A DNA stretch of 64,000 nucleotides from Octopus vulgaris (taxonomy: Eukaryota). The translations under genes were made by a program, and so were the position numbers. Under the pieces are notes generated by a model. It was given only the letters and a program-made list of their open reading frames with translations, was not told where the DNA came from and did not search any database. This document shows, one piece after another, positions 7,093-62,372 of this stretch. The stretch spans positions 54,994,001 to 55,058,000 of the forward strand of contig OX597819.1 of the NCBI GenBank assembly GCA_951406725.2. Direction: 5' to 3'. Every line of letters starts with the position of its first letter. The stretch's first letter is position 1.

Positions 7093-8260
7093 TGAGTGGG
7101 AAAGCAGTGCATGCCATCAAAGTGACACTGGGGTAAAATATACGAAGCCCAAAATACCTCTCATAACTACCCATCTGATAAGGGTACACCAGGCACATGC
7201 ATCACAACCATATGTGCGCGACATGGTGATCTCATATCAAGATAAACAGCGCATGCCTTTACAGGTAGGGCCCAGCTAGAATTTTCTTCAGGTCGAGTAG
7301 CTCATCCTGCTTAAAAGGTCCCTGAATAAGGTTTGTTTTAAGGATGATGAACAAAACACCCTTGTTTCCAGAGGTGAATTATTCAAACCCCAAAGAACTA
7401 TCAACACATGGCTATGATGCTCCCCCGCTACTTCTGCTCTTGATCAGGGCACCTATGACAACAAGTATTGTTTTTGTCTTGAGGTTCCACATTTTGCCAA
7501 TTTCTATTTCAAGATTTTTATAATTGCTCAGTTTTTGGTATGTCTTAACAGATACATTTATGTCGATTGGGACAGTCATATCAATGAGGAGGCATGATTT
7601 TTGTCTGCAGTCTTTCAATATTCTGGCCTATTCGCATTTATCTTTCTGTCAGTTTGAACGGTGAAGTTCCAGAGGAGCGAGATGTGATCATTTTCAAGCA
7701 CTGGAGGTGGTTTGTGTTCCCTCCAGTTTTTATCATGGAGCAGGTCCAGGTTTTTGCAAATTACCCAGTGAATATACTGTACTGTTCTATCATGCCTGTT
7801 GAGATACTCTGTAGGCGCAAGAAGACTGCACATGGAGACAACATGATCAATGGTTTCATTTTGTTGTTTACATACACATGTTCGACTACTGCCATTCTTT
7901 AATATGTTGGCCTGGTAGCTCCTTGTAGGTAGGCATTGATCTCGGGCTGCTATGATAAACCCTTCTGTTTCCGATTTTAAGCCAGAAGACACTAATCATT
8001 GATGGGTAAGGGATTTGTCGACATCGGTATTATTAACTATTTTTGGATATTTGCTACTGAGCGGTTTTAATTGCTATTTATCAGTAAGAATATCTAAGGC
8101 AACAGTTTTAGCACGGGTTTTCATACGCTTAGCTTTTTCTGTGCTTGTTTCCAGTATGTTTAATTCTGGGATTTGTTGTATTTGGAATTCACTTAGATAT
8201 TCCTTTGCCTGTTTTGTTACTGAGTTTGATGCTTTCTTGTTTTCATACTTTAAGACAAGT
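7093..8260 (-). mobile_element. R4/Dong-like RLE LINE, 5'-truncated and decayed
   Basis: LKSETEGFIIAARDQ, zinc knuckle C..C....ETIDHVVSMC, RHD, NRP...IDMTVP...K..Y..L endonuclease motifs; frameshifts and stops; 3' end on (AAT)n. Confidence 0.92.
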
Positions 8261-42630: not shown

Positions 42631-43248
42631 ACGTTATCCTTTTCCAGGTATTTCATCTTTCAGATGTTCTCCCTGGAGGTAAGACAATTTTTTCTAGTTT
42701 GTTGCACACACGCATTTTTGCTAGTACATACGCGGTGAAGCTATACATTAACGTCGTATTATTACGTTCGCTATTTCCAGTAAATATCGGTACTTCGTTG
42801 TGCCATATATTTACTTCTTTGTATATTTTCCCCTCACGGGCTATTCTTTACTGGAAAGCAATACTCTAGTATTGCATTACTAATTTATTGAAACTTCTTC
42901 ACCGTTCTCGTGCTGTTAGCGTTTCGGCGTTTCAGTCGAGTGTAATGGCATTAATGTGGTAACATCTGAAAGGTTGTCGTGGTATATGTTTGGCTGATGA
43001 AGATAGATCAAGTTTATGGGTGGCAGACATATCTTGAAAAATCTGAAACCTGCGCAAGTCCCACATTATCCTTTTCCAGGTATTTCATCTTTCAGATGTT
43101 CTCCCTGGAGGTAAGACAATTTTTTCTAGTTTGTTGCACACACGCATTTTTGCTAGTACATACCCGGTGAAGCTATACATTAGCGTCGTATTATTACGTT
43201 CGCTATTTCCAGTAAATATCGGTACTTCGTTGTGCCATATATTTACTT

Positions 43249-43257
<9 letters not shown>
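42631..43257 (+). mobile_element. Retrozyme-like element H4: 432-bp monomer plus a 187-bp direct repeat
   Basis: 42634-42820 matches 43066-43252 (two substitutions seen); hammerhead lies immediately before the second copy; ends in (TA)n. Confidence 0.82.
42984..43069 (+). ncRNA. Type I hammerhead ribozyme motif, intact core
   Basis: UGG-CUGAUGA(42994-43000)-AGAU..UCAAG...CUUGA..AUCU-GAAA(43045-43048)-C-CUGCGCAA-GUC^(43060)-CCA. Confidence 0.8.
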
Positions 43258-43292
<35 letters not shown>

Positions 43293-44402: not shown

Positions 44403-44602
44403 CCTTTCTACTATAGACACAAAGCCTGAAATTCGGGGGAGGGGGATAGTCGATTTCATCGACCCTATTACTCATCTAGTACTTATTTTATCGACCCCGA
44501 AAAGTTGATAGGCAAAGTGAACATCGACGGAATTTGAACTCACCACCACCATAATGATAATAATAATAATGGTTTCAAATTTTGCTACAAGGACAGCCAT
44601 TT

Positions 44603-46090
44603 TGGATGACCTCAAACTTTATGGTAAAGACGAAGCCCAAGTCAGTTGCTGATATCAGAATGAAGTTCGGACTGAGAAATTGTGGTGTGTTAGTCATGAA
44701 GAGAGGCAAAATCAAATGTATGGACGGGCTATCGATACTGTCGGGGATTTTTATAAAGCAGATAGAAGAGACGGGCTATAAGTATTTGGGGATCTTGGAA
44801 ATGGAGAAATTAATGGAGAAAGAAATGACAGAAAAATTTAAGGTGGAGTACTTGCGCAGACTGAGACTGATCCTTAAGTTGAAATTAAACGGACGGGATA
44901 AGATCGAAACTATCAACACCTGGAGCAGGGGTAATCGCATCGACAGTAGACGAACTAAACAGCTTAGACAGAAAGACAAGGAAGTTGCTAACTAAATATG
45001 GGACACTCCACCCAAAAAGTGACACAGACAGACTGTATGTACTAAGAAAAAGGGGGTCAAGAGGACTTATTGGATGCGAACACAGCATTAGATTAGAAGA
45101 AAAAAACATAGCATGGTATGTAAAAAAAATGCTACAGAACCGCTATTATTAGACGTAAGAAGGTCAGGCTTATGTACGATAAAAGATTGCAAAGATAAAG
45201 CACTGTACAAGCAATTGAAAACGAATGAAACTGAAAATTGGTGGGTAAAGAAAAGAATGCACGGACAATTTCATAGGGTCGTTGAAGATAAAACAAACAG
45301 AGAAAAAAGATGACTGTAGATGACTAAAAGTGACTTCAAACCAGAAATGGAGGCTCTAATCTGTGCTGCCCTAGAGCAAGCACTAGGAACAAATTATATA
45401 TAATACAGAATAGACAACACATCAGAAAGTGATAAGTGCAGAATTTGTGAACAAAATGGTGAAACCGTAGGGTATATTACCAGTCAATGTACGCCACTAG
45501 CCCAGGAGGAATATAAGGGACACCGCGACAATATAGCAAGGCTTGTCTATTGGACACTTTACAACAAGTATGAACTTGACAGAGCAAAAAATTGGTACGA
45601 CCACAAACCCGAAGGCATCATCAAAAATGATAATGCAAAGATCCTGCGAGATTTTATGATTCAGTGCGGCCATGAGATAGAGAATAAGAAGCCAGACATA
45701 GTCTTAACTGAGAAAGAAAGCAAACTGTGCTGGATCATAGATATAGCATTCCCAGCTGACAACAAGGTATGCGATAAGGAAGAAAGAAAAGTCGATAGAT
45801 ATGACAGATTAGCTTGGGAGGTTAAGCAGTTGTGGTCGATGAAAAAGGTGGTAGTGGTACCAACAATTGTCGGAGCCCTGGGAACAGTGAGTAAAAATCT
45901 TGATAAGTACAAAGAACAAATAGGACTGCAATGAGAGTGGAACACTTACAGAAAACAACACTACTTGGAACCGCTCGAATACACTGGAAGATGCTCGAAA
46001 AATATGAGGTGTTACCTTAGTTCATTGGTAGTGAACAGCTGACACCATAGTATATCTCCAGCGTTAGAAGCTGTGCAAAGGCTATAAATA
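44603..46090 (+). mobile_element. R4/Dong-like LINE, RT C-terminus through RLE, decayed
   Basis: DDLKLY, IRMKFG..CGVL, YKYLGI, zinc knuckle, KPDIV...IIDIAFP...K..RY..L; stops and frameshifts; ends at (AAT)n. Confidence 0.93.
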
Positions 46091-46325
46091 ATAATAATAA
46101 TAATGGTTGTTTCCAACTTTTAGTACAAGGCCAGCAATTTTCGGGTGAGGTGGGTAATTCGATTGCACTGATCCCAGTGTTCAACTGATACTAATTTTAT
46201 CGACACCCTGACAGGATGAAAGGCAAACCCAACCTCTACAAAATTTGAACCCAGAACGTGAAGACAGATGAATTGCCGCTAAGTATTTTTGCCCGGCGTG
46301 CTAGTGATTCTACTAGCTCGGCGCC
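46090..46325 (-). mobile_element. SINE family B (other copies at 40496-40705, 43505-43650, 44400-44542, 49935-50120, 61128-61275, 63530-63745)
   Basis: Consensus match with an (ATT)n tail. Confidence 0.82.
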
Positions 46326-46369
46326 TTTACAACAACAACAACAACAACAACAATAATAATAATAATAAA

Positions 46370-47376
46370 AACTGTTTTCAGTATTCAAGGAAGCTGACAA
46401 ATACAAACAAAAAATCATACTACCTAATAAATATGAAGAGGAAGAAGAAACAACAAAAGCTATAAAACAAATGAAATCCAAACTAAAACAGCAACGATCC
46501 ATGATAAAACGATGGCAAGAAAAGCCTCTTCATGGCAAATGCTGGGCTAAACTAAATGCAAAAGAAATAGACAGAGAAAAATCCCAGCAATGGTTTAGAA
46601 GCTCAGGACTCAAAGCAGAGACTGAAAGATTTTTAATTGCAGCACAAGACCAAAGCCTCCCCACCAGAAATTACCAAAAACATGTAATGAAAAGAAACAT
46701 AACAAGTAACTGCAGAATATGTGGAGATGGACAAGAAACAATAAATCATATTATCTCTGGCTGCGCAGTCCTGGCTAAGAAAGAATATATTCACAGATAC
46801 GACAGAGTTTGGACCTACATACAGTGGAAGATATGCCAACACTATGGAATAACAATAGAAAAAATATGGTATAGGCACACGTCAGAAAAGGTCACAGAAA
46901 ACGAGAAAGCAACTATTCCCTGGGATATGCCAATACACACAGATAGAGGAATTAAGGCCAATAGGCCGGATATAGTTGTCAGAGATCATGATGAAGAAAA
47001 ATGCTTTCTGATTGATGTATCAATACCAGCAGATGACAACGTTTCTCTAAAAGAAATGGAAAAACTTTCAAAATACAAAGACCTGGAAATAGAGGTAACT
47101 CGAATGTGGAATCTAAAAAAACAGAAACAATTCCTATCATAGTAGGCGCATTAGGTATGATAAAAAAATATTCAGACAAATACATAACAAAAACACCAGG
47201 ACTTACAAATAAATATAACACACAGAAAATTGTACTGCTGGGCGCTGCACACATCCTACGCAAAGCACTTTCAATACAGTAACCACAAGAGCATCACAGC
47301 AAACCACAGCACATACCCAAGGCTCACAGAGCTGCACTCGGTAGTGAAGTGAAAGCACGCTATAAAAATAAAACAA

Positions 47377-61297: not shown

Positions 61298-61860
61298 AAA
61301 ACTGGAACGAGGTAACGAAAAGGGTGGCCAATCTCACCCAGAAATGGGCCTAGAGGAATCTATCCCAGAAAGGTCGAGTCGAGGTGGCAAATGCGTACAT
61401 CGCATCCGTCATCTATTACCGCTTGACCGTCGTCCCTTGCCCCGATTGCTGGTTAACCAAACTGGTGCGCTTACTCTTCTACTTTCTGTGGAAGGGGCAA
61501 GCTCCACTGGTCAGGCGCTTCATCTGCAAACATACGCTCAGACTACGACATCTTAAGCGTTTCTTGGACAGTGAGCAGGTGTGGTCGCCGTTTGTCAGAC
61601 TCGCCTTTCTACAGCTCGTCTCTTTGACTGAGCTGCAATCTTGGACCTAGCGTAGACCGATAAAGGGCGCTTGGAACCTCGAGTGCCGTCAAGCACTCAC
61701 AGCTCTTCGCCAGACGGGCAATACGGTCGGTGGTAGTTCCACTCTAGCGTTCTATAGAGGGTTAATGGAGGGAAAGTGCGACGACGTTCTCGAGGAAACT
61801 CTGGTCGTTGATGACGATCAACTAACCGGTCTGTTTCAGAGAACTTTCGGGCCTTGGCTG
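61298..61860 (+). mobile_element. L1/Tx1-clade LINE ORF2 fragment
   Basis: RNLSQKGRVEVANAYIASVIYYRL...LFYFLWKG matches the post-RT LS..GR..L...FLW pattern. Confidence 0.75.
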
Positions 61861-61959
61861 AAATCCCTTGGCTGAAAAAGGGTGGTTTAGCCTCCAACTG
61901 ACGAAGTTTCTCCATTAGGGATTGACACTCCAGTTTTATTAACGGTGGAAAAGTGAGAT

Positions 61960-62372
61960 AGTTATGAAAGACTTTTAAGACCAAATGGTCAGGAAAACTG
62001 ACGGAAAGGGTCTTGCTCCACCACACAAGCCCTTGCTTTCAATGGCTGCTAAGTGTGGTTGTGGCTTTGAACTGGTTGATTACACTCCCTTTTCTTCTGA
62101 TTTGGCCCCATGTGACTACAACCTGTTCCTTAACATGAAAAAGCACTTGGTTAGGAACCAGTATCGCAGTGATGATGACGCCATATCTGATGTTAATTAC
62201 TTTTTTGCGTAACTGGATAAAAGCTTCTTCCTCAATGGGATCCAAGTACTGCAACATCGTTGGAAGAAGTGTGTGGATCGCAAGAAAGACTATGTTGAAA
62301 AATTAACCTCATGTGGTCACATTCCATGAGAGTATCGTGGTCAGCCTATGAACTTTTCAGCTGACCCTCGTA
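61960..62372 (+). mobile_element. mariner transposase 3' fragment with TIR
   Basis: PFSSDLAPCDYNLF (YSPDLAP.D motif)...GIQVLQHRWKKCVDRKKDYVEK*; ends ACTTTTCAGCTGACCCTCG|TA. Confidence 0.9.

Follow-up and report, generated by a model that had tools for sequence, protein, structure and literature searches.

A dispersed family of 432-nt hammerhead repeats in Octopus vulgaris with two fixed right ends and Penelope-type insertion marks

The window analyzed here, a stretch of 64,000 nucleotides from Octopus vulgaris (GenBank assembly GCA_951406725.2, contig OX597819.1, positions 54,994,001 to 55,058,000 of the forward strand), carries an insertion that is probably one 5'-truncated member of a family of non-coding hammerhead repeats of 432 nt (a non-LTR retrozyme), whose copies have two fixed ends in (TA)n and were likely pasted by a Penelope-like reverse transcriptase (RT)-endonuclease in trans. 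The fixed boundary of the family is its right end, not its left. Counting monomer positions (q) from 42631, which places the predicted hammerhead cut between q430 and q431, we followed 281 arms at 170 unique loci (out of 193 family loci). Right ends fall at q183-200 in 147 arms, at q247-262 in 103 and elsewhere in 31, so that 250 of the 281 stop about 198 or about 260 nt after the cut, with 125 arms ending exactly at q196 and 60 exactly at q258. The 3' flank is TA-rich in 219 of these 250 fixed-end arms versus 3 of the 31 others, and the 75 single-arm loci comprise 57 with the short end, 16 with the long end and 2 with another. The initial annotation placed the left end of the window copy near the cleavage site; across the family the left ends are scattered.

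The features of the window copy are collected in table 1. The direct repeat described by the initial annotation, 187 bp with a period of 432 and two mismatches, is reproduced as the core at 42634-42820, and over the full 196 nt (42631-42826 and 43063-43258) there are four differences, including those two. Equally borne out are the intact words of a type I hammerhead with a stem II of about 44 nt before the second copy, the right end running into (TA)n, and the start of the first copy a few nucleotides past the cut-equivalent position, which is the third base if a 2-nt match is counted and the sixth otherwise. The monomer has a GC content of 38.9%, and no stop-to-stop frame within the element exceeds about 80 aa. 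Translated searches (tblastn) of the window with three Penelope proteins found no match, and neither these nor the reading frames of the window place an RT plus GIY-YIG frame between the repeats; judged by its sequence, the window element is not an autonomous Penelope element. The predicted fold of the whole monomer is better than that of shuffled sequences (z = -3.1), and the region around the two 3' ends folds far better than shuffles in all four copies folded. Words that look by eye like a splice donor, GAGGTAAGA (42676-42686), and an acceptor, TTTCAG (42925-42935), occur within the monomer; introns can be retained in Penelope elements. Elsewhere in the window, frames at 44570-47139, 7588-7995 and 61354-62038 resemble fragments of other non-LTR retrotransposons.

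Table 1. Features of the hammerhead element, in window coordinates
Feature	Position	Strand	Remarks
Whole insertion (locus L271)	42631..43258	+	1.45 monomers of 432-nt period; 5'-truncated; stops at the short 3' end
Upstream partial copy	42631..42826	+	monomer q1-196; certain match from 42634
Downstream copy	43063..43258	+	reaches the short 3' end (q196, about 198 nt past the cut), to within a few nt because of TA overlap
Type I hammerhead	42986..43066	+	sequence and covariation; 95.6 bits under our own model, which it fits by construction
Stem I	42986-42993 with 43061-43066	+	sequence
Hammerhead core CTGATGA	42994-43000	+	sequence
Stem II	43001-43044	+	44 nt between CTGATGA and GAAA
GAAA	43045-43048	+	sequence
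GTC (GUC)	43058-43060	+	predicted cut after 43060
Stem III near-palindrome ACCTGCGCAAGT	43048..43059	+	A at 43057 private to the window copy
62-nt 'tail' between short (q196) and long (q258) 3' ends	42827..42888	+	only internal in the window copy
Predicted structured region around both 3' ends	42774..42875	+	fold z = -5.0; same fold in 3/3 other copies folded
11-bp stem enclosing the short end	42774-42784 / 42847-42857	+	predicted fold
Hairpin just before the long end	42858-42875	+	predicted fold
(TA)n target microsatellite, (TA)18	43252..43288	.	right end of the insertion runs into it

That the element is a multi-copy one of the retrozyme type, as first proposed, agrees with our searches of the host assembly (2.8 Gb, 227 contigs). 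A hammerhead 23-mer has 129 exact genome matches and a 22-mer near the 3' end has 686, with none for either reversed control, and a search with the monomer returned at least 127 matches (40 scored of 1527 candidates). Subfamilies are 73-99% identical to the window copy and several keep the unit of about 430 nt; a genome query with an older subfamily found further non-coding copies. The same word recurs about 432 nt apart in 33 matches, with one adjacent pair, and some copies have two hammerheads in tandem (e.g. L002, L003, L005, L016 and L022), against one in the window copy. Searching for words at monomer distance, we saw no long exact array, a search that could miss collapsed or diverged arrays.

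In most copies the hammerhead core is preceded, at a distance of 59-62 nt, by a conserved TCAG(T/A)CGAGTGT (window 42932-42943), which resembles the TCAGT element of U1/U2 genes, which is found at -56 to -60 in 26 of 27 U1/U2 loci of this genome. As an snRNA-type promoter in the monomer this candidate found no support: the weight matrix chose another site as best, and an equally high score was reached by 634 of 1000 resampled sequences.

The hammerhead is supported by covariation. Across 22 aligned copies picked for diversity, 96.2% of the cells in stems I-III are paired, and 8 of 24 pairs carry changes on both sides; one of 500 shuffles scored as high, and slid controls were 22-39% paired. 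Because the structure was hand-drawn from these same sequences and the copies are related, we take these figures as support and not as a probability. Core words are intact in 157 of 168 copies, in a search that itself demanded near-matches. Of these 168 hammerheads, 108 have a perfectly palindromic stem III, the commonest form being a perfect 12-mer; the palindrome occurs in lengths of 6, 9, 10, 11 and 12, with two different 12-nt sequences, so the palindrome has been kept through changes of both length and sequence. This fits a dimer model for animal hammerheads (PMC4209133): here too, pairing through the palindromic stem III likely enables cleavage by two hammerheads acting as a dimer. The 16-mer holding the A at 43057 is unique to the window copy in the genome, and since this private base lowers the predicted stability of the stem III self-dimer (-10.3 vs. 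-23.5 kcal/mol for the common form), the window copy is probably a weakened ribozyme. In all six copies computed, the constrained hammerhead fold lies 1.5-9.2 kcal/mol above the minimum-energy fold. For monomers with the 12-nt forms of stem III, a closed stem of 4 bp is predicted; the lengthening of stem III from 6 nt in some subfamilies to 12 nt in others would turn a dimer-only ribozyme into a monomer-competent one. Stem I has a U bulge of 0, 1 or 2 nt among L126, L030 and the window copy (42986-42993).

Among 93 head-to-head pairs, 23 with one arm ending elsewhere were set aside, and 66 of the 70 classifiable pairs combine one short and one long end, as against 35 expected (p = 8e-16); counting distinct junctions only, the figure is 65 of 68. 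TA is found on both sides of 59 of the 66 mixed pairs, and 44 of them show a 1-8 nt overlap of the arms where these meet. No correlation links the 5' ends of the two arms of a pair (rho -0.08). A private variant, a candidate sign of one template copied twice, is shared within 19 of 111 insertions; in 80 of the 111, differences within the insertion are larger than the best distance to another locus. Both counts come from a thin sampling of subfamilies. On one contig (C31), near-identical head-to-head insertions (L011-L015, L025, L027) have their junction and a terminal (CT)n-(TA)n in common, and were apparently duplicated as a block.

Similar structures have been studied in Penelope elements. 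According to Frangieh et al. 2024 (PMC11167929), a Penelope protein in vitro nicks AT-rich DNA on both strands and extends both, its RT starts at two internal sites that define a genomic tail, and hammerhead cleavage is dispensable for insertion. A tail at one end of inverted Penelope insertions is described by Arkhipova et al. 2013 (PMC3846280) and Craig et al. 2021 (PMC8557442), the former also reporting that pLTR sequences act in cis for mobilization in trans. Because our mapped ends fit the scheme of these three papers, we infer internal priming at about +198 and about +260, one site per strand. The Penelope-type mobilization that the initial annotation had inferred is supported by insertion marks of that type, namely fixed 3' ends, an optional tail, 5' truncation, inverted 5' copies and an AT-rich target. 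A Penelope-like enzyme would nick a (TA)n target, and reverse transcription would start inside the RNA, about 198 or about 260 nt after the hammerhead cut, and copy back through the intact cut site. If both target strands prime, each start site would be used once, and the two cDNAs would join by short microhomology into a mirror-image insertion; if one strand primes, a simple truncated copy such as the window insertion would result.

This scheme needs a template that is unbroken at the cut. We lean slightly toward a ligated monomer circle over an uncut partial-tandem transcript or template jumps. A more speculative proposal, which we hold tentatively and at somewhat less than even chances, is that one Penelope protein dimer recognizes two structured start sites, spaced by 62 nt, on a small circular ribozyme RNA, with one site for each cut (TA)n strand, so that every two-armed insertion would be a fossil of coordinated two-strand priming. 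If this is true, efforts to reconstitute the formation of Penelope inverted ends would have in the 432-nt RNA a minimal substrate that is free of protein.

Which enzyme could have acted in trans? GIY-YIG frames are many in this genome (6136 candidates). A young Penelope-like family (L184, L181, L155; G000:C6:133343700-133349700 and others) has, besides an intact 781-aa RT plus GIY-YIG frame, an upstream one of up to 479 aa; its copies stop in TA, either at a short end or behind an extension of about 35 nt holding a hairpin, and by eye its 3' region has a minimal hammerhead (U3-A8 core, 6-nt palindrome) before the short or long end in (TA)n. A second young family (L191, L237, L253, L270, L305), with 94-99.7% protein identity between copies, also shows a minimal hammerhead by eye in its 3' region and adjoins retrozyme insertions at three independent loci, with TA repeats between; L253 and L270 belong to a single duplicated segment (99.7% along 3.4 kb). 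The protein search gave no name for the Penelope clade; a CxxxxCxxC linker and the description in PMC8557442 suggest that it is Neptune-like. RT fragments adjoining L052, L272 and L289 were considered as partners and rejected as unrelated neighbors. Flanks of family loci hold other hammerhead-like motifs of unrelated sequence, some of them head-to-head; the whole set comprises L111:3775, L117:4549, L195:5906, L198:1589 and 1629, L200:5186, L210:1617, L217:1552, L229:2227, L242:1379 and L251:2683.

An alternative to copying through the cut site is that the window insertion was made from self-cleaved RNA, whose 5' end was the hammerhead cut and to whose end the RT ran, as the initial annotation had read from the left end of the window copy. 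The window copy and three others do start 1-5 nt after the second cut (4 of 33 in the pooled list at 0 to +5 vs. 1.5 expected, P = 0.058), and 10 of 34 ends lie within 10 nt of it against 5.0 expected (P = 0.022), in a list that includes older copies, was curated by hand and was pooled after the data had been seen. However, the long-arm set before pooling is not significant (7 of 28 vs. 4.2 expected, P = 0.115), and five of the ten near-cut ends lie upstream of the cut, in stem III, in sequence that a cleaved RNA would lack. Moreover, 24 pooled arms extend more than 10 nt past the second cut. At the first crossing there is no excess at all, with 2 of 62 arms stopping within 10 nt vs. 4.9 expected, and in a tail-selected sample (the loci behind the first 100 of the 686 22-mer matches) 60 of 100 arms cross the cut intact. 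Among the arm ends listed near a cut, none starts at the first base after it. A left end at the cut is thereby ruled out as a family rule, given the scattered left ends, the lack of a first-crossing excess and the lack of any start exactly at the cut. The weak excess near the second cut could reflect a small contribution from cleaved 5' ends without being a signature of the family, and we regard self-cleaved RNA as an unlikely source of the window copy.

On another reading there is no independent RNA parasite, and the repeats are what is left of the terminal repeats of some still undiscovered autonomous Penelope-like element that moved in cis. Every insertion mark is of Penelope type, and Xenopus retrozymes resemble pLTRs according to a recent preprint (bioRxiv 10.64898/2026.07.22.740005). 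The 50 GIY-YIG loci examined, of 150 listed and 6136 candidates, leave such an element room, though they hold no sequence in common with the monomer (best E 3.4). Against this reading, long arms run into more monomer and not into coding sequence (the 33 two-word matches at about 432 nt), the adjoining RT fragments that were traced had unrelated 3' sequence or TA or other repeats between, and several subfamilies, 73-99% alike, keep the unit length. No autonomous element sharing the monomer was found beside the screened family loci, and in 37 sources the covariance model that we built picked up family copies and nothing else; overall we consider a cis-moved remnant improbable. As for a local tandem duplication or satellite with chance hammerhead words, the scoring proposed at the outset did give it some footing, since Rfam yields no hammerhead family, whether at the gathering score across the window or with E<=10 between 42400 and 43400, and the unconstrained fold of the 101-nt hammerhead region is no better than shuffles (z = +1.1). 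Yet copies are dispersed on many chromosomes, with fixed ends and covariation, and copy number and end structure refute this reading, to which we assign next to no probability. A truncated copy of a retrozyme family mobilized in trans is the reading we retain.

By its sequence, the family is one of animal non-LTR retrozymes, with a hammerhead in the unit of a short, low-GC, multi-copy, non-coding repeat. Literature searches, supplements aside, found no paper on an octopus retrozyme, and the family may be catalogued in Repbase or Dfam. Judging by two papers (Cervera and de la Pena 2020, PMC7229834; bioRxiv 10.64898/2026.07.22.740005), it shares with the animal retrozymes a non-coding, low-GC repeat of a few hundred nucleotides, a single type I hammerhead in each unit, with a stem III that is palindromic, as well as coexistence with Penelope-like elements, which are proposed there as mobilizers; the preprint argues that animal retrozymes ride on Penelope elements. 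In contrast to what these sources describe, almost all copies here are dispersed units of less than two monomers, often head-to-head, and the 44-nt stem II is missed by Rfam. Cleavage and circles are shown there; in the octopus family cleavage is predicted and a circle is proposed. The parts seen of these papers map no insertion ends and name no octopus family. With only one hammerhead, the window copy belongs to the monomer class and not to the 'active' class of the preprint (Li, Clavereau and Pollet 2026), in which 8 of 9 Xenopus dimers did not cleave. With the animal hammerheads of PMC4209133 the family shares the type I topology and a palindromic helix III suited to dimer folding, and differs in a stem III that varies from 6 to 12 nt between subfamilies.

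The likeness to Penelope-like elements, as described in PMC3846280, PMC8557442 and PMC11167929, extends to partial tandems, 5' truncation, head-to-head inversion, an AT-rich target, an optional tail at one end and two internal RT starts downstream of the hammerhead. The octopus family differs in having no coding frame and in a tail of 62 nt versus 30-40 nt there. Its pairing of short and long ends is also near strict (66 of 70), where the papers speak of 'often' or 'optionally', and this bears on how Penelope inverted structures form. The kind of element is already known and the family is ordinary in kind; what it adds is a set of insertion ends that match internal two-site priming, which makes it useful as a clean record of Penelope-type priming.
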